A stretch of DNA of 64,000 bases, from assembly GCA_003019595.1 (NCBI GenBank), contig NEXD01000002.1, positions 13,137 through 77,136 on the forward strand, given 5' to 3'. Shown here piece by piece: positions 29,374 through 51,729 of this stretch. Each line of letters starts with the position of its first letter. The stretch's first letter is position 1. The position numbers and the translations under genes were made by a program. The notes below the pieces were generated by a model. The model saw nothing but the letters and a program-made list of their open reading frames with translations, was not told the origin of the DNA and made no database searches. The stretch is from Candidatus Marsarchaeota G1 archaeon BE_D. GTDB lineage: Archaea; Thermoproteota; Thermoprotei_A; Marsarchaeales; Marsarchaeaceae.

Positions 29374-30822
29374 TCACTCCAACAATCTTGCCAAACCTGG
29401 ATAGACTTCTTCTATCTGTTCTTGCAGTAAAATTTGGTAAACTTGATAGATTATACCTATCGCAAGCAATAATCCCATACCAGAACCAAAGGCGCCAAGC
29501 ACGTCAGCAACTCCCGCAATTATTCCAGCAAGCAAAGAGCTAACAAAGGTAAGTGAATAAATGGGCTTTCTCAAAACCGCCTCTATTATCCCAACGGAGC
29601 TCCTAAAACCAGCGATTTGCAGACCACTACTTGCAAGTTGCTCGGCTTGATCGCGTGGGCCAAGTCCTGCTATTTCAACCCACATATACGCAAATACCAC
29701 AGAAAGAAGTGTAAGAAGGACCACAAAAACAAGAGCTCTTATGGGCTCTTGTATAGTCATACCCAATCCAATGGGATTTTGAATGTAGAAAGCTAAACCT
29801 CCAGTAGGTTCTATTTGACCACTGGCGGTTCTTGTGTATGTCCCTAGCCAGTTGAGATACCAAATATTATTGTTAGGATTTAATCTAGACCAAACTATTT
29901 GAGAGAAAAAGATATAGTCAGAAAAGAGTATTCCTGCTAGCAGCACCGGTACGTTAGAAACATATAGAAACTGTAGTGGTATTTTACTTCTATAACCCTG
30001 TGCTTTTTGATAAACCACAGGTATTTGTACCTTCATTCCTTGTAAATACACAAGCAGTATTATAAAAACGATTGTCGCAACTAGACCTACCAGATCTGGT
30101 GCGGGAGGAGAATATTGGCTTGGTGGGTAACGTATTACAGCCGCAAGGAAATTCCCTCTTAGGGCAGCTTGAAAAGCGGCAACAACCGCACCATAAGCGT
30201 ATACCGCACTAACCCCTTGAACATTAAAGGGCTGTGGGGAAAATGCGGAATAAAATACTTGAAAAGTCACACCCGCTAAAATAAAAAGGCTTATACCGCT
30301 ACCTATACCCCAACCTTTTTGAAGCATTTCATCAAGAAGTATCACTACGAGTGTTGAGAAAACTAGTTGCACAAAAACGAGAAGATCCTGTGTTGGAGTT
30401 AATGCACCGAATATCCGACCAAGCGTATACGCAGCTGCTTGAACCATCGTGAAAAGCACAGCGAATGTCTTTTGTGCGGCGGTAAAATCGATTCTGTCTG
30501 CTGGATTAGACAGGTCGATCTGTATGATTTTCGATCCGACGAGTATTTGCATAATCATGCCTGCTGTAACAATAGGCCCTATTCCAAGTTGCATTAGTGT
30601 ACCCTGTTTTGAAGCGAAAATCAGGTTGAGAACGCTAAATTGATTTGACACCTGCGGAGGAATCCCAAACAAGGGAATATCAGACATAATAAGATATACC
30701 ACTAGTGCAAGTCCAGTCCAAGCGAGTTTTTCTCTAAGAGAAGGTTTCTGGGCTGGCTTTTCTGCGGCAGGTAAGTATTTTGCCACCGAAGCAAGAGCGC
30801 TTAAAAATTTGCTACTACCCAT
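29374..30822 (-). CDS. secY: Preprotein translocase subunit SecY
   Basis: 482 aa, about 10 TM segments. GTLMQLGIGPIVTAGMIMQIL and GWGIGSGISLFI. Confidence 0.9.
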   Translation of the reverse strand: MGSSKFLSALASVAKYLPAAEKPAQKPSLREKLAWTGLALVVYLIMSDIPLFGIPPQVSNQFSVLNLIFASKQGTLMQLGIGPIVTAGMIMQILVGSKIIQIDLSNPADRIDFTAAQKTFAVLFTMVQAAAYTLGRIFGALTPTQDLLVFVQLVFSTLVVILLDEMLQKGWGIGSGISLFILAGVTFQVFYSAFSPQPFNVQGVSAVYAYGAVVAAFQAALRGNFLAAVIRYPPSQYSPPAPDLVGLVATIVFIILLVYLQGMKVQIPVVYQKAQGYRSKIPLQFLYVSNVPVLLAGILFSDYIFFSQIVWSRLNPNNNIWYLNWLGTYTRTASGQIEPTGGLAFYIQNPIGLGMTIQEPIRALVFVVLLTLLSVVFAYMWVEIAGLGPRDQAEQLASSGLQIAGFRSSVGIIEAVLRKPIYSLTFVSSLLAGIIAGVADVLGAFGSGMGLLLAIGIIYQVYQILLQEQIEEVYPGLARLLE

Positions 30823-42372: not shown

Positions 42373-42644
42373 TTATTCCACCCACTGACTTGTTGTTGAA
42401 GTGATGCTAAAAGATAAGTTTTCCTTTTCATCACCTCATTATACAAATACAGAAATGCACCGACCTATACATTGTTCAAAGAATAACTTATACCTTCCTT
42501 GATCAAAATATTATTTGGTGATGTTATGGGAGGAAGACAGAGAACGGTAATTCTTGATGAGATCTTTAAAAAGAATGCAAATGAAAAGAAAGAGAATCAA
42601 AAGAAATCATCTGCTAAATGAATTTGTTAAGGTTTTGAAAAGAT

Positions 42645-43966: not shown

Positions 43967-44040
43967 GGGGCTGTCAGCTAGCCTGGCTAGGCGGCAAGCC
44001 TTGGGCGCTTGCGACCAGGGTTCAAATCCCTGCAGCCCCA
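43967..44040 (+). tRNA. tRNA-Pro (UGG)
   Basis: Acceptor GGGGCUG/CAGCCCC, anticodon arm CAAGC-CUUGGGC-GCUUG, T arm CAGGG-UUCAAAU-CCCUG, discriminator A. The D stem has one A-G mismatch. Confidence 0.85.
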
Positions 44041-44072: not shown

Positions 44073-45308
44073 TTGCTAAGTATGCGAGAAGATCTAGTTC
44101 AAGAGGCTATTTCTAAAAGAATTCCATTACATAAAATTGCAGAAGTCTTTGGTGTGGACGAAAACGAAGCCGCAAAGATTCGTGCAAAAATTTTAGAAAT
44201 AAAAACGAACACAAAACTAAACAAGGTTTCTTCGATAATCTTTGATTTTAACAAACTGGTTGGTAAAAATATAGAAAATCCGATAGGCGGAGTCGCCTTA
44301 CCTGTAGGTGTGGTAGGCCCAATTCTAATAAAAGGAGATTATGCCAATGGTGAATTGTATCTGCCTATCGCGACAACGGAAGGAGCGTTGGTCGCATCAG
44401 TAAATAGAGGCGCTAATGCCACGTTTAAGAGTGGAGGGATAAAGACAAAAATTCTAAAAGATTATATGACACGAGCTCCCGTGTTTAAAACGCAGTCGTT
44501 AGAAATGAGTTTGGCAGTAAAAGAATGGATTGAAAAAAATTTCGAGGAATTAAAAAAAGTTGCTGAAAGTACCACAAGGCACGGTAAGCTTATTGACGCA
44601 ACTTCTTTTGTGATAGGAAACAATTTGTTTGTGCGCTTTTCATTTACGACAAGCGACGCTATGGGAATGAACATGGTCACGATCGCCTCAGAAAGGATGT
44701 GTAGGTTGATTGAAAGAGAAACTGGAGCAAAACTTGTTTCTTTGAGTGGAAACCTGTGTTCTGATAAAAAGTCTTCATTGGTTAATGTTTTACTAGGAAG
44801 GGGTAAAAACGTTGTAGCAGAATGTGTTATTAAGAGTAGTGTTATTAAAGAAGTGCTGAAAACTACTGCGTCAGAAATTGTTGATGTAAATATAAGAAAA
44901 AACATGCTTGGAAGCGCTTTGGCAGGATCCTTTTCGCAAAACGCGCATTTTGCAAACATAATCGCTGGAGCATTTATCGCACTTGGTCAAGATGTGGCTC
45001 AAACAGTTGAATCAAGTCAAGGTTATGTTTTCGCCGAACAAAGGGGGGACGATTTATATTTTTCAATCACGCTTCCAAATCTTGAAATAGGCACAGTTGG
45101 TGGAGGTACTGCTCTTGATGCACAAAGGGAGTTGCTAGAGTTGACTGGGGCTTTAAAAGCGAAAGAAGGTGAAAGGGCCAAATGGTTGGCAGAAGTGATT
45201 GCGGCTGGTGTTCTTTGCGGCGAGCTTTCGTTACTTGCAGCGCTTGCCTCTAACACTTTAGCTGAGTCTCACATAAAACTTGGAAGAGGGTTAAAGACTG
45301 AACGTTAG
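44073..45308 (+). CDS. hmgA: HMG-CoA reductase (class I)
   Basis: 411 aa. ENPIGGVALPVGVVGP, ATTEGALVAS, DAMGMNMV and GTVGGGT. The start may be ATG 44082 rather than TTG 44073. Confidence 0.9.
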   Translation: MLSMREDLVQEAISKRIPLHKIAEVFGVDENEAAKIRAKILEIKTNTKLNKVSSIIFDFNKLVGKNIENPIGGVALPVGVVGPILIKGDYANGELYLPIATTEGALVASVNRGANATFKSGGIKTKILKDYMTRAPVFKTQSLEMSLAVKEWIEKNFEELKKVAESTTRHGKLIDATSFVIGNNLFVRFSFTTSDAMGMNMVTIASERMCRLIERETGAKLVSLSGNLCSDKKSSLVNVLLGRGKNVVAECVIKSSVIKEVLKTTASEIVDVNIRKNMLGSALAGSFSQNAHFANIIAGAFIALGQDVAQTVESSQGYVFAEQRGDDLYFSITLPNLEIGTVGGGTALDAQRELLELTGALKAKEGERAKWLAEVIAAGVLCGELSLLAALASNTLAESHIKLGRGLKTER

Positions 45309-46001
45309 ATTAGGTAAACTTGTGAATATTGTTTGGTTGACCAAATATACAGGACAAGTGTTGTATAAAGCGAATAAAAAGCAATCATTTATTTGAAGTA
45401 GTATATAAGACGTCTCGTTAAAACTTTTAATTACCAATTTTCCGTTAACTTGAGGGTTTTCTCTGATCCATGAAGCTAAAAAGATATACAAATTTTGCGT
45501 AGAATCTTTTTGATGAATTAAAGATAAGACTTTACCAAATAAAGACTCGCTTATCGAAAATCTTACTGGAATCTCTAACTCCATTTTTTCATGCAAAAAT
45601 AATCCTTGTTTTTGCAAATAAATGTTCGAACTGATATAAATTAAAGGATAATAATTTTTCAAACCATAATATCCCAAAACGTAATTAGTAACGTTTGCAA
45701 GATAAGTATAACCATAAAGTGTATACAGAATTTGCGTATTTGTTTTGAGTTTATTTTCAATATAAAATAATAATTTTATATAGCTTTCATTAGTTAAAAT
45801 ATAAGAAAATTGATTCAAAAAATTCTTTGTGGTTTCATATGCTAACCATTCGTTGTAATATCTAGTGCTGTAAATCAAAACCGCAAGGCTTGGGTATATT
45901 TCTAAACTTGTGGTGACGGAGTATAGATAAAGCTCAAAGCCAATTAGCATAACCAACAAAACAAGCGCCACAACTGTAGTTAAAAAACCCTTTTTAGCCA
46001 A
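45291..46001 (-). CDS. Pilin-like secreted protein with class III (type IV prepilin) signal peptide
   Basis: 236 aa. MAKKG|FLTTVVALVLLVMLIG (KKG followed by a hydrophobic helix). Five N-glycosylation sequons (NES, NVT, NET, NQT, NLT). Tyr/Asn-rich. Confidence 0.5.
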   Translation of the reverse strand: MAKKGFLTTVVALVLLVMLIGFELYLYSVTTSLEIYPSLAVLIYSTRYYNEWLAYETTKNFLNQFSYILTNESYIKLLFYIENKLKTNTQILYTLYGYTYLANVTNYVLGYYGLKNYYPLIYISSNIYLQKQGLFLHEKMELEIPVRFSISESLFGKVLSLIHQKDSTQNLYIFLASWIRENPQVNGKLVIKSFNETSYILLQINDCFLFALYNTCPVYLVNQTIFTSLPNLTFSL

Positions 46002-46197
46002 CTTTAATCACCATTCTTATGGTTGACACGCTTATGGTCAAGTTGTTTGTCGAATGGTTTGCCTCAAACAAACAAGAAACGCTTGGACAATTCTGGAATA
46101 GTTGAGCGAATAATTGCGTTATCTTTTGTTGATTTTCTATTTTTGCATGGAAATTTTGAAGAAGAACATTGTTTATGCCGCTCGTTACGAGTAACAA
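45994..46197 (-). CDS. Hypothetical small protein (weak call, non-ATG start)
   Basis: 67-aa track ORF with a TTG start. The frame is open from 46228 (..IGDIFLLLVTSGINNV..). Sequons NHS and NLT. It overlaps the start of the 236-aa gene by 8 nt. Confidence 0.2.
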   Translation of the reverse strand: MLLVTSGINNVLLQNFHAKIENQQKITQLFAQLFQNCPSVSCLFEANHSTNNLTISVSTIRMVIKVG

Positions 46198-46243
46198 AAA
46201 AATATCGCCAATACGAGAATTACGTCAAGTGTTGAGATCAAAG

Positions 46244-46405
46244 CTATATATCACCCCAATAGAGTTGACCCTGCGCGTAACCAATGACTTTTAGTATTTC
46301 TGATATAGAATGCGTAATTTGATTTATAAAAAAATGTGTAGTCAATATTAATAAAATCGAACACAAGATAGTCGAAAAAAATTCGATGAGTGATGTCATG
46401 AACAT
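46244..46405 (-). CDS. Small N-terminally hydrophobic protein (53 aa), pilin-like
   Basis: The start is moved to ATG 46405 (MFMTSLIEFFSTILCSILLILT), preceded by GAGGT 3 nt upstream. Shares an IGYAQ motif with the 127-aa neighbour. Confidence 0.35.
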   Translation of the reverse strand: MFMTSLIEFFSTILCSILLILTTHFFINQITHSISEILKVIGYAQGQLYWGDI

Positions 46406-46779
46406 TTTACCTCTTGTAAGAGCAAGGGGGAAGTGGTGCCATTTATCATAATACACTCGTCATTATAGTTAAATGTTAAATTCACATATGAAAAATCAAA
46501 AGGAAAGACTGTTATAAATCTGGAATTATTAACAAAAAAGACTGCATGCGTTCCATTTGTTTGCAAATTCACCAAACCCTTTGGCACCTTGATTAAGACT
46601 ATCACCTTAAAGAGTTGAGCGTAACCAATGGTATCAAAAAGGTAATTCATTCTTTCTTGGGTGAGAGCTTTCATTCCTTGTTTTACTAACGGAATGGTTT
46701 CGCTAACAACTTCATTTAAGAAATATCCTGAAGTTATCACCATAAGCAATATTAAGAAGGTTTCAAACAAGAGCTCCAA
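46396..46779 (-). CDS. Small N-terminally hydrophobic secreted protein (127 aa), pilin-like
   Basis: MELLFETFLILLMVITSGYF hydrophobic N-terminus, IGYAQ motif, sequons NGT, NNS, NLT, NGT. First gene of the leftward operon. Confidence 0.4.
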   Translation of the reverse strand: MELLFETFLILLMVITSGYFLNEVVSETIPLVKQGMKALTQERMNYLFDTIGYAQLFKVIVLIKVPKGLVNLQTNGTHAVFFVNNSRFITVFPFDFSYVNLTFNYNDECIMINGTTSPLLLQEVKCS

Positions 46780-46832
46780 AGTTTGTCTAAAATATTATTC
46801 AAGTAAGCTTTTGCCTTTTATCGAAGGTAATA
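46780..46832. promoter_or_regulatory. Divergent promoter region of the pilus-like locus
   Basis: A 53-bp AT-rich spacer between divergent genes, with TATA-like AAAATATTATT and CTTTTATCG. Confidence 0.3.
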
Positions 46833-48242
46833 ATGATGAACCTAACAATAGGATGGGATGCTAGTAGAGTGGTTTTCTCTCAGAGTATAGACAAAATGGA
46901 TTTTTCGCTTTATACAAAAGCAAAAAAAGAGACGGTTTTTATTTTAGACCGACTAGTTTTGGTAATCGATGAAAAAAAGCTTTTTAAATTCGTGTTCCCG
47001 CGTACGAACAAAATCGCAAGTTATAATTTAGGACCATTCACAATAGAAATAAATGGTGGAGATTGGCCTAGCTACAATTGGAAAGCCCAAAATTTAGAAT
47101 ATATTAATACGGTTATAGAGGAAATTGTAAAAGAAAAAATTTATGTAGAAAGCTATAGCAACATGTTTGGTGAGATTTTCGAAAGTCTAAGACGATATGC
47201 AGAACACAAAATCTCGTTTTATGCAAAAAATTGGAACAAAGAAATACCCGTTTTTTGCGTTCTTTCTGCACTTGGGCTTACGCCTATAGCGCCATTAATC
47301 ATCGACGACAAAATCGAAGAAATTTATCTTGATAGACCTGGCTCATTGTGTTATATAGATCACGCGGAATTTGGAAGATTATGGTATCCATATATCGTAA
47401 CAAGATTGTGTCTTAAAAGATTAGGTTTTTATGCACAACTTTCTTCGTCAGGAACGCTCAGCCTTAGCACAAACACCATAAAAGCGCATATCGTAACTGA
47501 TTTCTTCCATTTACGAGTAAATGTGGACTCAGAACCATTAGCCTTCGATGGAGGTTCTTGCATTATTAGAAAATTCAACTTTACGCGTATGAATTTATAT
47601 AATTTAATAGAAAGAGGTACTTTAACTAAAGAGTGCGCCGCTTTGCTTATCGGTTTGATTAACGCAGGTTATAATCTTTTTGTGTGCGGCTTGCCAAGAA
47701 GTGGCAAAACGACCTTGTGTAACGCTTTACTACAATTCGTAAACAAGGAGTGGAGAAAAGTTTACATAGAAGATGTTGTGGAAACCTCTACCCCTTTGCC
47801 GCAAGACAAAGTGGTAAGATTCAGTACCGAATCAAGCTATAACACCGATAAGCTTTTTGAAGTAACAAAAACTCTGCACAGATCACCAGACTTGGTTTTT
47901 GTGGGAGAACTGCAAACTAGAGAGCAAACGCTTGCAGCGGCTACTCTGCTCAATATTGGCATACCTTCTATTCAAACTGTTCACTCAAAGACAGTTGAAG
48001 GACTATTAAAAAGATGGAGAGAAATTTACGGATTGAAAGAAGCTGGATCTATTTTTTATGCATGCTTTATGGAACGATTTAACAACCAAAGATTGGTTGA
48101 TAGAGTTGAACAAATCTTAGTGCAAAACGAGCAAGTGCATGTCACAACATTATACAAACAAGGGGAAATTCATTATGATGTAATAAAAGCACTCGGATTA
48201 GAAAAAGTGTTTCAGGATGGACTTAAAGCGCTTATATTATAG
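46833..48242 (+). CDS. Type II/IV secretion-family ATPase (FlaI/PilB/TadA/VirB11 superfamily)
   Basis: 469 aa. Walker A CGLPRSGKTTL, Walker B PDLVFVGELQTRE, His box IQTVHSKT. Confidence 0.8.
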   Translation: MMNLTIGWDASRVVFSQSIDKMDFSLYTKAKKETVFILDRLVLVIDEKKLFKFVFPRTNKIASYNLGPFTIEINGGDWPSYNWKAQNLEYINTVIEEIVKEKIYVESYSNMFGEIFESLRRYAEHKISFYAKNWNKEIPVFCVLSALGLTPIAPLIIDDKIEEIYLDRPGSLCYIDHAEFGRLWYPYIVTRLCLKRLGFYAQLSSSGTLSLSTNTIKAHIVTDFFHLRVNVDSEPLAFDGGSCIIRKFNFTRMNLYNLIERGTLTKECAALLIGLINAGYNLFVCGLPRSGKTTLCNALLQFVNKEWRKVYIEDVVETSTPLPQDKVVRFSTESSYNTDKLFEVTKTLHRSPDLVFVGELQTREQTLAAATLLNIGIPSIQTVHSKTVEGLLKRWREIYGLKEAGSIFYACFMERFNNQRLVDRVEQILVQNEQVHVTTLYKQGEIHYDVIKALGLEKVFQDGLKALIL

Positions 48243-49413
48243 AAAGGCGCTGTTATTCATTATTTTCATTTGCCTAGCCTTGTTAGCTATGCGTTTTAGC
48301 GTGCTTTTGCCAGCGTTAATAATGCCGCTATCAAATTTGTTCGATGACAAAAAGGAGACTTCTTTTTTTATAAAGGTAATGAATCAAAATTTAAAACATG
48401 TGATGACGAAGATAGGCATTAATCCGCAAAAAGTGGATATTGTGATCAAAGGGGAGTTTAGAGTGTTAAGAAACAGTCACACAAGAGTCTTAATTAATGA
48501 ATATATTTTGAGCAAACTTACCAGTTATAAATTGCAAGAGCTTTTACTCGAAAACGGAATTATACTCTTAATTGGCATGTCGACAGTGGGTTTGCTCACT
48601 TCGTATATTATTGGTTTGTTATATGGAAAAGCATTACTTAAGAGTCTGTTCGTTGCGCTTTTGCTAAGCGTATACGTAGTAAGAAAATACTCTATCACAC
48701 ACTTGGGCAATGCGTTGAACAAAAAGTGGGTTGAGGCTTGTTGTTACGTTTTTCTTGTAATGCTACTGTTAAATAAACTTCGTTTTATAAGATTAATACT
48801 ATTTGTTTCGGGGATGTTGTTTATATCTTTTTGTTATAAGAAACATAGATTGAGAAAGAGAAATGAAAAAGAAGAAAAAGAACTCTTTAATGGTTTAATT
48901 AATTCGTTGGGCACAAACCCATTTGCCTTTTCAAAAAGGATTTTACGTGCAATTAGTCAAAAAGGATTGGTCACAGCATCGCTTTTCGTTGAAAATCCTT
49001 CATCTTATGAGATTTTAAAAAATATGTCGATGCGCTTTTCTAACCCAGATTTTGGGGAAACGCTAAAGGCAATTTCAATTTCCGTTTCTCTTATAGGGTA
49101 TAATCCCAAATGGGCATCTTACGTTATCAAAATACGTAAATCACTCGAAAATGCAAAAACAAAGGTAAAGCATCAGTTAGCAAAAGTGCAACTAATGAGC
49201 TCTTTAATGTTTTTGATAACTGGCGTTAGCCTTTCTATTCTTTCTACAAATCCTATTTTCTCACTAAATTCGCTGGTTTCGTCTATCGTGCCCATTCTTT
49301 ATTTTGATTCTTGTTTTTTGGCGTTTTCTTTCATTTATTCTTCTGAGTTGACTTTTAGCACGCTCTTTTTTTGCACCATATTTTCAGAAATCGTCTTACT
49401 CTTTCTCAAGTAA
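48217..49413 (+). CDS. Polytopic membrane platform protein (FlaJ/TadC/PilC-like)
   Basis: 398 aa, about 8 hydrophobic segments separated by two soluble segments. 26-nt overlap with the ATPase gene, the typical ATPase-platform pair. Confidence 0.5.
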   Translation: MDLKRLYYRKALLFIIFICLALLAMRFSVLLPALIMPLSNLFDDKKETSFFIKVMNQNLKHVMTKIGINPQKVDIVIKGEFRVLRNSHTRVLINEYILSKLTSYKLQELLLENGIILLIGMSTVGLLTSYIIGLLYGKALLKSLFVALLLSVYVVRKYSITHLGNALNKKWVEACCYVFLVMLLLNKLRFIRLILFVSGMLFISFCYKKHRLRKRNEKEEKELFNGLINSLGTNPFAFSKRILRAISQKGLVTASLFVENPSSYEILKNMSMRFSNPDFGETLKAISISVSLIGYNPKWASYVIKIRKSLENAKTKVKHQLAKVQLMSSLMFLITGVSLSILSTNPIFSLNSLVSSIVPILYFDSCFLAFSFIYSSELTFSTLFFCTIFSEIVLLFLK

Positions 49414-49449
49414 ATTTTTCTCTTTAATGGAAAATATTATTGATGTGAA

Positions 49450-49686
49450 ATGTTGTTGGAACTACTAAGAAATAAAAGGGGTTCTCCGCTATTAGAAGAG
49501 GGGCTACTTGTCGGGCTTGCGTTGGTGCTTTTTGGTGTGCTTATATCAGCGATAATGGGAATTTTTGGATGGTTCCAAGCGGCTTCTCAACCATTGGGTA
49601 ATTTAGGTGGAGGATTGGGTACACTTTTTCAAGAAATTTTACAAGGATACTTAAAGATATTTAAATTTTTAACAGGGCAAGGGTAA
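49450..49686 (+). CDS. Flp/Epd-type prepilin (78 aa)
   Basis: MLLELLRNKRG|SPLLEEGLLVGLALVLFGVLISAI. Basic leader ending in G, Glu at +5, Gly at +7, then a hydrophobic helix. This is the pattern of Flp (G|xxxxEYG) and Methanococcus Epd pilins. Confidence 0.55.
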   Translation: MLLELLRNKRGSPLLEEGLLVGLALVLFGVLISAIMGIFGWFQAASQPLGNLGGGLGTLFQEILQGYLKIFKFLTGQG

Positions 49687-49695
49687 ATCGCAAAA

Positions 49696-51147
49696 ATGTA
49701 CAATCCCTTTACAACTAAGGTCATCAAAGACGGCATACGCTGGCTTGCCTTCAAAACTTTTACCATAAAAAAACTACAAAAAGAGATAAATATCGAGCTT
49801 GTCTCAAGACTCAATTACGAACTAATTAATAGTTCCGTAAATTTTGTAATCGTGGGATTTGCAAAGGCAGGTTTGCCTCTTTTTGGAAGAACTGTGGCTT
49901 CCTATCTTATACTTTACGAATGGGGTTTTAAAAAGAAAGACGCGCTCAACAGGTTAAAAAAAAGTTGTGAAAGAGTCAAATCTCTTGCAAGAATGGTTGG
50001 ATTTGACATAGATGAATCCACAAAACACGATCTAAACACATTTGATTTGATTTCAATGTTTTTGACAAAGCTAGATGATTTTCCAAGGCTTGATTTAAAT
50101 CCATCACAAAGTGGACAAATCAAGATTGGTAAAACGCTTACAGGCGAAGAAGTTAGTCTAGCTTTAGAAGACTTCTTTAAGCATTTTGCCGTTTTAGGAG
50201 AAACTGGCTCAGGAAAATCAACTTTCGTTTCCAAAATCGTTAAAAATTGGAGCGAGTTAGATCAGCACTATTTAATTTTTGACTGGCACGGCGAATACAT
50301 GAAGTTACTGAACGACAATTCGGCTTTGCTTGTTACACCAGAGCAAGATTTTGGATTCGATATCTTTGAATATCCAACTACTGCTGATCCGTTTGAACAC
50401 ATCGATTTACTTATGGAGGTCTTTTCTGAAAGTTTCGATTTGAGCGTCTCTCAACAATACGTTTTACGAATAGCATTAAAAAAGGCTTATACAGAAAAAG
50501 GACATGGCATGTCAAATCATACAAAACCTGTGACTGTTGATGATGTAATTAAGGCAATAAACGAAATCAGAACTTATTCTGGATGGGAACAAGAATCTAA
50601 ACTTGCTGTATTAAGAAGAGTTTCAAAAATAGCGGATACTGGTCTAAAGAATCTTTTAAATGCCTCACAAAAGGTTGGTTTTGACAATCTTACTAAAGAA
50701 AATATAATAATAGATTTAGGAAAACTTTCTGATGATTACGCCAAAATTTTTGTTATTGAAGCAATTGTCAGAATTCTTTATAATTACAGATTGGCAAGAA
50801 AAATAACGGAACCTCATCTTTTAGTTATTGAGGAAGCAAGAAACGTCGTTCCATTTAGAAGACAAGAGGAACCTCCAAGGATGATGGAGCGATTAGTAGA
50901 AGAACTTAGAAAGTTTAACGAGTCAGTGATGGTAGTCAACCAGCTTCCGTCGACTATCTCGCAAGAACTACTTTCTGCTGTAGGTAATATAGCAGTTTTC
51001 AGGTTAAAAGCCGATATTGAGCAGGATATTTTAGTCAAGCGGTGCGGCTTTGAAAAAGAGATTTTAAAGACTCTTTCGAATTTATCTATCGGACAAGCCA
51101 TTTTCCGAGGACATAATGGATTATGTAAAATTATAGAATACAGATGA
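49696..51147 (+). CDS. HerA/FtsK/VirB4-clade P-loop ATPase (DUF87-like)
   Basis: 483 aa. Walker A VLGETGSGKSTF, Walker B HLLVIEEARN. A possible N-terminal hydrophobic segment VNFVIVGFAKAGLPLF. Confidence 0.65.
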   Translation: MYNPFTTKVIKDGIRWLAFKTFTIKKLQKEINIELVSRLNYELINSSVNFVIVGFAKAGLPLFGRTVASYLILYEWGFKKKDALNRLKKSCERVKSLARMVGFDIDESTKHDLNTFDLISMFLTKLDDFPRLDLNPSQSGQIKIGKTLTGEEVSLALEDFFKHFAVLGETGSGKSTFVSKIVKNWSELDQHYLIFDWHGEYMKLLNDNSALLVTPEQDFGFDIFEYPTTADPFEHIDLLMEVFSESFDLSVSQQYVLRIALKKAYTEKGHGMSNHTKPVTVDDVIKAINEIRTYSGWEQESKLAVLRRVSKIADTGLKNLLNASQKVGFDNLTKENIIIDLGKLSDDYAKIFVIEAIVRILYNYRLARKITEPHLLVIEEARNVVPFRRQEEPPRMMERLVEELRKFNESVMVVNQLPSTISQELLSAVGNIAVFRLKADIEQDILVKRCGFEKEILKTLSNLSIGQAIFRGHNGLCKIIEYR

Positions 51148-51654: not shown

Positions 51655-51729
51655 TGGGTCAGGCCGGATTTGAACCGGCGATCTCCACCGTGTAAGGGTG
51701 GCGTCCTAACCAGACTAGACGACTGACCC
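51655..51729 (-). tRNA. tRNA-Val (UAC)
   Basis: Acceptor GGGUCAG/CUGACCC, D arm GUCU..GGAC, anticodon arm CCACC-CUUACAC-GGUGG, T arm GCCGG-UUCAAAU-CCGGC. Confidence 0.9.

Follow-up and report, generated by a model that had tools for sequence, protein, structure and literature searches.

A Tad/Epd-like filament operon with a CedD-related ATPase in Marsarchaeota and Nitrososphaerales, a candidate apparatus for DNA uptake or exchange

CedD (Saci_0667 / SiRe_1715), a HerA/VirB4/VirD4-like ATPase named as a component of the Ced system in 2025 (PMC11868833, PMC11823120), is essential for DNA import but dispensable for aggregation or export in S. acidocaldarius and Sa. islandicus, and its orthologues have been reported only in organisms with Ced or Ted systems (PMC11823120, PMC11868833). 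Among type IV filaments, the Epd-like/Tad clade is defined by a major pilin of unusually small size and by a platform divided over two genes, each with a single T2SSF unit (Denise et al. 2019, PMC6668835), and some bacteria depend on Flp/Tad pili to take up DNA (PMC4322843, PMC8513845). The accessory ATPases recorded in surveys of archaeal type IV pili are KaiC, MinD/FleN and MoxR, with no HerA-type partner (PMC4858521; bioRxiv 10.64898/2026.04.22.720090), and in thaumarchaea the integrative and conjugative elements (ICEs) bring VirB4 and VirD4 together with FlaI, TadC, pilins, a prepilin peptidase and a homologue of TFIIB (Krupovic et al. 2019, PMC6563490). Here we analyse a cluster of eight genes in a 64,000-nucleotide (nt) stretch of contig NEXD01000002.1 from Candidatus Marsarchaeota G1 archaeon BE_D (the window, to which all coordinates refer), in which a filament module and an ATPase related to CedD share one operon; a literature search found, within its limits, no description of an operon that combines a type IV filament with a HerA- or CedD-type ATPase.

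The cluster consists of two tightly packed divergent operons and encodes a FlaI/CpaF-type ATPase, an Flp-like prepilin, a polytopic membrane protein, four pilin-like proteins (MP1-MP4) and a CedD-related ATPase of 483 amino acids (aa), and it is widely conserved (Table 1). All eight open reading frames (ORFs) that a preliminary description of this DNA had placed at 45291-51147 are found there in the ORF list, and the remaining window holds the ribosomal-protein superoperon and other translation genes. On one side the cluster is flanked by hmgA (HMG-CoA reductase) and on the other by bcp (peroxiredoxin) and a tRNA-Val gene. In the rightward operon the filament ATPase and membrane protein genes overlap by 26 nt, a 36-nt gap precedes the pilin gene and a 9-nt gap follows it, in agreement with the overlap and the start of the HerA-like gene about 10 nt past the pilin stop that had been described (9-10 nt; 49686 and 49696). 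The leftward operon is also compact: its successive genes are joined by an ATGA stop/start overlap, separated by 2 nt and overlapped by 8 nt, in that order.

Table 1. Features of the cluster, with coordinates in the window. A slash marks a predicted cleavage site; TM, transmembrane segments.
Feature	Coordinates	Strand	Evidence and remarks
MP4, 236-aa pilin-like protein, last leftward gene	45291..46001	-	N-terminus MAKKG/FLTTVVALVLLVML; 5 N-x-S/T sequons
MP3, pilin-like protein, 82 aa when intact	45994..46241	-	MISTLDVILVLAIFFLLLVTSG...; 67-aa ORF 45994-46197 is the downstream piece
MP2, Flp-like mini-pilin of about 51-53 aa	46244..46405	-	M(FM)TSLIEFFSTILCSILLIL; listed ORF 46244-46456 (70 aa)
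MP1, 127-aa pilin-like protein, first leftward gene	46396..46779	-	N-terminus MELLFETFLILLMVITSG; 4 sequons
Divergent intergenic region	46780..46832		53 bp; AT-rich element AAAATATTATT at 46789-46799; GAAGGT upstream of the ATPase ATG
T2SSE-family filament assembly ATPase, FlaI/CpaF-like, 469 aa	46833..48242	+	Pfam T2SSE PF00437, E = 3.6e-16, above gathering score
398-aa polytopic membrane protein, candidate fused TadB-TadC platform	48217..49413	+	About 7 TM, two cytoplasmic stretches
78-aa Flp-like prepilin	49450..49686	+	MLLELLRNKRG/SPLLEEGLLVGLALVLFGVL...; predicted class III cleavage after Gly11, Glu at +5
483-aa CedD-clade HerA/VirB4-fold P-loop ATPase, putative hexameric DNA translocase	49696..51147	+	Pfam DUF87/HerA central domain, E = 7.8e-26

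The 483-aa protein, which is 100% identical to hypothetical protein B9Q02_01130 of the same genome, has CedD as its closest characterised family, ahead of HerA, CedB and VirB4. In NCBIfam searches CedD was the best match (146 bits, E = 1.2e-42; HerA models 55-77 bits), and all pilus-linked homologues tested likewise had CedD as their top match at 150-246 bits, with lower scores for HerA (45-82), CedB (28-49) and VirB4 (25-36). Alignment of profiles with hhalign against Sulfolobales CedD gave E = 1e-41 (residues 36-479) and E = 1e-47. A search of the PDB with the family profile returned Sulfolobus HerA 4d2i (E = 4e-29), and the AlphaFold2 (AF2) model (pLDDT 77, with an N-terminal domain predicted to be alpha/beta) matched the same structure in Foldseek (E = 7e-16), while its ATPase domain superposed on VirB4 4ag5 with a target-normalised TM-score of 0.70 and a root-mean-square deviation (rmsd) of 4.7 Å. 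The GETGSGKST and HLLVIEEARN motifs reported for this protein were recovered in its translation, and all members of the family keep the Walker A and B residues unchanged. Placement of the protein in a non-translocase family had been named as a result that would refute the preliminary description; both profile and fold searches stay within the HerA/VirB4 clade. By homology with its characterised relatives, we infer that this CedD-clade ATPase moves DNA.

The filament ATPase had been attributed to the FlaI/PilB/VirB11 family; its T2SSE membership holds, with FlaI, GspE and CpaF as the closest relatives of solved structure and VirB11 weaker. FlaI was the best NCBIfam match (89.8 bits), followed by TadA (50.6) and VirB11 (47.7), and a PDB sequence search gave FlaI 65.7, A. 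fulgidus GspE 59.6, CpaF 54 and VirB11 29 bits. On plasmids, the best tblastn matches among those listed are annotated as CpaF or Tad-type ATPases. The GLPRSGKTT, DLVFVGELQTRE and IQTVHS motifs are present in the translation as described.

For the adjoining 398-aa protein, described as a FlaJ/TadC-like platform with about eight transmembrane (TM) segments, hydropathy gives a count of seven, and the TadC assignment is retained here as a candidate one: we infer that the protein is a TadB-TadC fusion. In most relatives the platform slot is occupied by two genes, whose products of about 230 and 210 aa show weak paralogy to one another (hhalign E = 8.5e-4), and in loci L031 and L039 the platform is again fused. 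Direct similarity between the fused Marsarchaeota platform and the split Nitrososphaerales proteins is not significant, and we treat the two forms as equivalent because they occupy the same position and because fused variants occur elsewhere. The split proteins matched a profile of bacterial TadB/TadC with E = 7e-4 to 1.4e-3 and scores of 30-33 in an hhalign comparison that used 12 reference sequences, where the scores were 34 for HofC, a bona fide T2SSF protein included as positive control, and 12-22 for nulls made from reversed sequences; an earlier comparison with 4 references was too insensitive, as the TadBC-HofC control itself reached E = 0.09. For the fused Marsarchaeota family the same comparison gave E = 0.007 only. 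That family is small, comprising 6 members in an exhaustive HMMER search of 1.84 billion representatives; a word-index search returned only the protein itself and one relative, and a PDB profile search with the 398-aa protein was empty. The label Tad/Epd-like, given to the module at the outset, stands, since that clade is characterised by a short Flp-like pilin and by single-unit platform genes in pairs, as most relatives have them.

The 78-aa prepilin has one strongly hydrophobic N-terminal segment followed by a short amphipathic tail. Its class III motif with Glu5 (KRG/SPLLEE; KRG/SPLLEEGLLVGLALVL) is kept across about 20 loci, where the pilins measure 67-86 aa and follow the family motif [KR][KR][GA]/[AS][QP]L[IVL]EE[AG]LL; the bacterial Flp pilins compared read G/VTAIEYGVL and G/ASSLEYIAL. 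The identification as an Flp/Epd-type prepilin made in the preliminary description therefore holds at the level of motifs. The PDB chains 8DFU and 8DFT, VirB2 and CedA1 were unmatched by the 78-aa protein. Between Marsarchaeota genomes (the window against L007, L009 and L011) identity is 76-82% for the pilin, 59-67% for hmgA, about 49% for the two ATPases and about 28% for the platform, making the pilin the most conserved protein of the cluster. Conservation above that of the housekeeping gene hmgA is unusual for a major pilin, and it would be easier to reconcile with a tightly constrained, perhaps short pseudopilus than with an adhesive fibre exposed at the surface.

When one genome was scanned for each species, 39 loci were obtained, 25 of which had at least 3.6 kb of upstream sequence. 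Whether the HerA-like gene is linked to pilus genes in relatives had also been named as a test, and 22 of the 25 loci carry a T2SSE gene on the same strand within 2.5 kb, with the T2SSE gene, membrane gene or genes, pilin gene of about 70 aa and HerA-like gene kept in order and strand. Carriers include Marsarchaeota G1 and G2, a Thermoprotei metagenome-assembled genome (MAG; L053), an unplaced archaeon (L013, 30% identity) and about 20 MAGs labelled Nitrososphaerales or 'Thaumarchaeota', several of them from soil, and the metagenome loci L007-L013 show the same order. The Marsarchaeota relatives, whose ATPases are about 49% identical, retain all eight genes adjoining hmgA, and the divergent four-gene set is conserved in relatives too. 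Because the order recurs in relatives that are only 25-50% identical, the arrangement is not due to chance. The three exceptions are decayed: locus L025 has a disrupted ATPase gene, and L047 and L048 carry gene remnants.

In the first of these (L025, 1513-5883) only a C-terminal T2SSE fragment is left and foreign ORFs lie upstream, and the other two (L047, 8082-8810; L048, 6800-7591) have kept no more of the CedD-like gene than a C-terminal part of about 240 aa. In L029 (1897-3012) the minor-pilin genes are separated from the ATPase gene by an IS240-type transposase. In a Nitrososphaerota MAG (L045, 470-8788), a CedD-like gene of 661 aa with TM segments lies 1 kb from a canonical Rad50-Mre11-HerA operon, and the contig ends before any pilus gene is reached.

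Genomic neighbourhood also connects the pilus-linked genes to cedD itself. In two Sulfolobales genomes the order is S17e, Urm1, a small ORF, cedD and a convergent thermosome gene (L058, 6001-9928; L060, 6001-9202), and in Metallosphaera (L058) a TFB3-like 193-aa TFB zinc-ribbon protein is encoded next. At L013 (5002-9196) and L053 (7827-11263) a pilus-linked CedD-like gene is followed by a kinase gene of the AAA_18 family and a thermosome gene, and L013 continues with a histone gene, S17e and Urm1. Because L013 and L053 have this thermosome neighbourhood in common with Sulfolobales, we consider the pilus-linked genes and Sulfolobales cedD to be probable positional orthologues, and Sulfolobales may have lost pilus genes at the cedD site. 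The earlier statement that the cluster matches no described Ced layout is correct in part: the ATPase belongs to the CedD clade.

Two further kinds of gene recur at these loci. A small AAA_18 (adenylate-kinase/Fap7-like) gene lies directly downstream of the CedD-like gene in many lineages, among them L013 (6904-7491), L044 (9038-9577), L053 (9041-9610), L040 (9137-9721), L045 (2442-3047) and L014 (8740-9324), often convergent and overlapping the 3' end of the CedD-like gene; it is absent from the Marsarchaeota locus. Divergent TFIIB/TFB paralogues adjoin the cluster in Nitrososphaerales and Thermoprotei loci, namely L024 (1838-2872), L040 (1344-2447), L044 (414-1412) and L053 (1190-2239), and in L014 (6080-6892) a TFIIB-like gene is directly upstream of a lone CedD-like gene. 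Their presence recalls both the control of ups and ced by TFB3 and the TFIIB genes of thaumarchaeal ICEs.

We interpret the cluster as a vertically inherited, chromosomal Tad/Epd-like filament machine of which the CedD-clade ATPase is a fixed, co-transcribed component and which would carry out pilus-coupled DNA translocation, a reading that we hold with slightly better than even confidence. The pilus-coupled transfer machine proposed in the preliminary description gains support in this sense, with DNA suggested as the substrate by homology only. In the mechanism envisaged, the prepilin would be trimmed after Gly11 by a class III signal peptidase whose gene lies in another part of the genome, and a T2SSE hexamer acting on the TadB/C-like platform would polymerise a thin Flp-type pilus or pseudopilus primed by MP1-MP4. 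The filament would capture DNA or a partner cell, and the CedD-like hexamer would then pump DNA across the membrane, most likely inwards as for Sulfolobus CedD. In some lineages this hexamer would be held at the membrane by its own TM segments, and in Marsarchaeota and Nitrososphaerales it would presumably dock on the platform or on the filament ATPase. More tentatively, and with rather less than even confidence, we propose that the cluster specifies an archaeal DNA-uptake or DNA-exchange machine of a type not yet described, in which an Flp-type filament and a CedD-type hexamer form one apparatus without a VirB6/CedA or ComEC channel.

Several observations weigh against the interpretation of the cluster as a pilus-coupled DNA translocase. 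The 483-aa protein scores 146 bits against the CedD equivalog NF053655, which has a cut-off of 600 and on which true Sulfolobales CedD proteins reach 570-737 bits, and it matches model positions 198-515 only. Its N-terminal 140 residues alone show no significant hhalign similarity to the N-terminal domains of CedD or of the Nitrososphaerales proteins, and TM segments are absent from the window protein and the Nitrososphaerales proteins, whereas CedD has a TM domain, which some of its described orthologues lack; N-terminal TM segments do occur in the L013 and L045 homologues, and L053 encodes the anchor on its own, as a 184-aa protein. The platform protein of the window has no match to PF00482 or to anything else in Pfam, NCBIfam or PDB sequences (in Pfam and NCBIfam, the same is true of 10 relatives), and its AF2 model, built from a 5-sequence alignment, has a pLDDT of 56 and returned only GPCR and ABC-transporter noise in Foldseek. 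The pilins match no Flp, TadE or pilin profile (Pfam to E 10, PDB profile search), so their status derives from motifs and position. No prepilin peptidase was found among the ORFs of the 64-kb window, in which the only other protein with many TM segments is encoded at 29374-30822. The thermosome synteny is missing at the window, where the neighbours are hmgA and bcp. Finally, the cluster contains no VirB6/CedA-like or ComEC-like channel (Pfam TrbL/VirB6 was not matched at E up to 1, and no VirB6/CedA reference profile was compared), which makes the route of DNA through the membrane the weakest step of the mechanism.

An alternative interpretation is that the cluster encodes a type IV secretion system (T4SS) of the Ced/Ted kind, in which the T2SSE protein would be VirB11-like, the 398-aa protein VirB6/CedA-like, the 78-aa protein VirB2/CedA1-like and the 483-aa protein VirB4-like. 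Bacterial T4SSs typically pair a T2SSE-family ATPase with one of VirB4/VirD4 type, the superposition on VirB4 4ag5 described above would fit such a pairing, no profile or fold search placed the membrane protein or the pilin, and Ced/Ted components are known to escape BLAST between lineages (PMC9905601). We consider this improbable because the 78-aa protein bears the Flp signature of a basic leader, a G/S cut and Glu5, whereas CedA1 is unprocessed and TedC is cut by signal peptidase I (PMC9905601), and because it contains one strongly hydrophobic helix rather than two and is accompanied by four neighbouring pilin-like genes with the same N-terminal logic. Moreover, the T2SSE protein favours FlaI (66 bits) and CpaF (54) over VirB11 (29) in the PDB search, and the membrane component occurs as two paralogous genes, as in Tad/Epd systems, with a TadB/C match about equal to that of HofC. 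Accepting a filament machine, one may still ask whether its CedD-like ATPase serves the filament itself, as a retraction motor, in protein extraction or secretion, as a regulator or as an assembly factor. Archaea are without PilT (PMC4858521) and the retraction motor of archaeal pili is unassigned; TM segments are absent from the 483-aa ATPase, Pfam and NCBIfam showed neither a nuclease nor a DNA-binding protein nor a DNA channel in the cluster, and the unusual conservation of the pilin would suit an internal pseudopilus or piston, as in secretion systems. Such a role is unlikely in our estimation, because the closest characterised HerA/VirB4/FtsK members all act on DNA or inside DNA-transfer machines, cells can aggregate without the nearest relative, CedD, but specifically need it to import DNA (PMC11823120, PMC11868833), and synteny favours orthology with cedD.

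Translocation in the opposite direction would be expected if the cluster were the domesticated or decayed mating apparatus of an ICE that exports donor DNA. A similar set of VirB4/VirD4, FlaI, TadC, pilins, prepilin peptidase and TFIIB is known from thaumarchaeal ICEs (PMC6563490), TFIIB-like genes flank the cluster in the four loci listed above, the window has tRNA genes to either side of the cluster at distances of no more than a few kb, and GC content is slightly below that of the neighbouring DNA (0.33-0.37). However, integrase, relaxase, ParB, replication gene and att-like direct repeat were not found at the locus, the flanks of the Marsarchaeota loci are housekeeping genes without an integrase, and those of the Nitrososphaerales loci are housekeeping genes as well; adjacency to hmgA is kept in Marsarchaeota although the proteins are only about 50% identical, a collection of contigs from viruses and mobile genetic elements contained no relatives, and there is a single HerA-type ATPase, not a VirB4 and VirD4 pair. 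The cluster is chromosomal and not mobile, the mobile-element reading having been rejected on the empty viral-contig scan and the lack of att repeats, and we give a derivation from such an apparatus a low probability. A 22-nt inverted repeat (44019-44040 / 51655-51676) surrounds the region; as an element boundary it was likewise rejected, since it consists of the similar 3' ends (T-arm and acceptor) of the tRNA-Pro and tRNA-Val genes on opposite strands. It could also be supposed that the 483-aa protein is a repair- or defence-type HerA helicase that merely happens to lie beside a pilus operon, given that its JGI name is DNA helicase and that its top PDB sequence and fold matches are HerA and anti-phage HerA complexes. 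This is very improbable: the linkage holds in 22 of 25 loci over phylum-level distances, only 9 nt separate the gene from the pilin gene, no NurA, Mre11, Rad50, Sir2 or DUF4297 partner is adjacent, and the HerA and anti-phage HerA models score 55-77 bits (62-67 for the HerA repair helicase), below CedD and far from their equivalog cut-offs of 800-970. Because the operon structure is conserved, incidental adjacency is effectively refuted.

On the more tentative reading, that of an undescribed type of uptake or exchange machine, the machine would be ancestral in the Thermoproteota-Nitrososphaerota lineage and the lone Sulfolobales cedD a remnant of it; CedD would have begun in a type IV filament machine, and its recruitment to the Ced system, itself T4SS-derived, would have come later. 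A dedicated competence-like system would then exist in Nitrososphaerales of soil and in Marsarchaeota of hot springs. Archaea have no recognisable ComEC, and the transporter of naturally competent archaea is unidentified (bioRxiv 10.1101/2022.08.17.504363). The cluster places a relative of CedD in a fixed operon with a complete pilus module, an arrangement that extends from Marsarchaeota to many Nitrososphaerales-affiliated MAGs, and common synteny links the pilus-linked gene to bona fide cedD. The hypotheses that arise are that CedD docks on a filament platform, that these lineages take up or exchange DNA, and that filament machines and T4SS-like importers share a component. Were the ATPase instead to serve the filament, archaeal pili would gain a candidate for their missing second motor.

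The leftward operon would supply the minor pilins. Its four small proteins have hydrophobic, pilin-like N-termini, as had been described, but two of the ORFs need revision: the 67-aa ORF is the tail of a gene interrupted at a T7 run, and the start of the 70-aa ORF is probably too far upstream. The many N-glycosylation sequons that had been noted in these proteins do not discriminate, because the cytoplasmic HerA-like protein itself has 7, against 5, 2, 0 and 4 in the four small proteins. A common N-terminal logic unites all four, with ELLFE/EILEY in MP1, a motif containing Glu in MP2, an acidic residue at about +5 in MP3 and [RK][RK][GA] followed by hydrophobic residues in MP4. MP1 has homologues in Marsarchaeota (E = 1e-5 to 1e-13), and its N-terminal motif ELLxE / EILEY is kept as far as Nitrososphaerales (MTEILEYCLVV, MAEILEYTLVF); gene callers choose a shorter start that gives 115 aa. 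For MP2 the most likely start codons are the ATGs at 46405 (53 aa) and 46399 (51 aa), because a Shine-Dalgarno-like AGAGGT lies 4 nt upstream of the former and the latter overlaps the MP1 stop codon as ATGA. Its motif x-x-[LI]-[LI]-E-[YF] follows a leader of at most 3 residues (family form M(xM)[AT]x[LI][LI]E[YF]), relatives begin MASLLEYMAAV, MRMATILEYLS and (M)AAIIEYISA, and a stop codon is found few codons upstream (five codons in L009). MP2 and its counterparts in L009 and L011 thus present an Flp-type mature N-terminus almost without a leader, and they may be independent of prepilin peptidase.

The poly-T run of MP3 (46196-46202) is T7 in the window, L001 and L003 and T8 in L002, L004 and L005; an alignment of the DNA covered the window and L001 on the T7 side and L002 and L005 on the T8 side. 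The T8 form, present in 3 of the 5 sister assemblies, encodes an 82-aa protein with an intact hydrophobic N-terminus (MISTLDVILVLAIFF...), whereas T7 splits the gene; the difference would be due to misassembly or else to phase variation affecting a minor pilin. Relatives of MP3 are 85-aa homologues with Asp at about +5 (MIVYTDLML, MIVLLDLLL). MP4, which has one N-terminal hydrophobic segment in a hydropathy scan and no Pfam or NCBIfam match, is probably a large minor pilin or tip subunit; its Marsarchaeota homologues are encoded at the corresponding place in the cluster (phmmer E = 1e-10 to 1e-29), and the positional counterparts in Nitrososphaerales start with [RK][RK][GA]/hydrophobic residues. 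The AT-rich element between the two operons is a candidate shared TATA box with a putative promoter role. The same 11-mer also occurs at 49431-49441, 9 nt upstream of the pilin ATG, and at 42505-42515, upstream of a beta-CASP gene. Relatives do not conserve it, and it probably represents a generic element of AT-rich or TATA-like type.

Several described systems resemble the cluster in part. Bacterial competence is alike in logic, in that a filament (the Com pilus, or in Micrococcus an Flp-dependent system, PMC4322843) captures DNA and a cytoplasmic ATPase pulls it in, but ComFA is a DEAD-box helicase and ComEC a channel, and neither is homologous to any protein of the cluster. Archaeal HerA of the HerA-NurA-Mre11-Rad50 system and anti-phage HerA share with the 483-aa protein a RecA-like core and hexameric fold and provide its top PDB matches, whereas the cluster has no NurA, Mre11, Rad50 or effector partner and its HerA scores lie below that for CedD. 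Thaumarchaeal ICEs are the nearest precedent, being alike in their ATPases of the FtsK/HerA superfamily and in FlaI, TadC, pilins and TFIIB; they are large mobile elements with integrases, VirB6, VirB3, ParB, replication genes and two T4SS ATPases and are not syntenic with the cluster, which is an eight-gene chromosomal unit of fixed order with a single CedD-like ATPase. With Tad/Flp and Epd loci the cluster has in common a CpaF/FlaI-like ATPase gene followed by platform genes (two short ones in most relatives), a very short pilin with G/xxx[IL]E[YE] and several TadE/F-like minor pilins. It differs from them in lacking TadZ/CpaE, secretin and prepilin peptidase, in the fusion of the platform in Marsarchaeota, in having a platform and pilins that fall under every Pfam threshold, and in its HerA-type ATPase, which Tad/Epd loci do not have. 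With CedD of Sulfolobales (TedD in Thermoproteales), the likeness extends to the C-terminal HerA/VirB4-type ATPase domain, which is the best match of the 483-aa protein and of its pilus-linked homologues, to the N-terminal TM segments of the L013, L045 and L053 systems, and to a TFB paralogue nearby (TFB3-like in L058, TFIIB-like in Nitrososphaerales loci). Sulfolobales cedD is a lone gene whose product acts with the T4SS-like CedA, CedA1, CedA2 and CedB, with Ups pili encoded apart, whereas the gene described here is the last of a pilus operon, with no CedA or CedB nearby, and its product in the window is soluble and 483 aa long. The cluster joins two known kinds of machinery, a Tad/Epd-like filament and the Ced component CedD, and is a strong candidate for an undescribed apparatus of DNA uptake or exchange.

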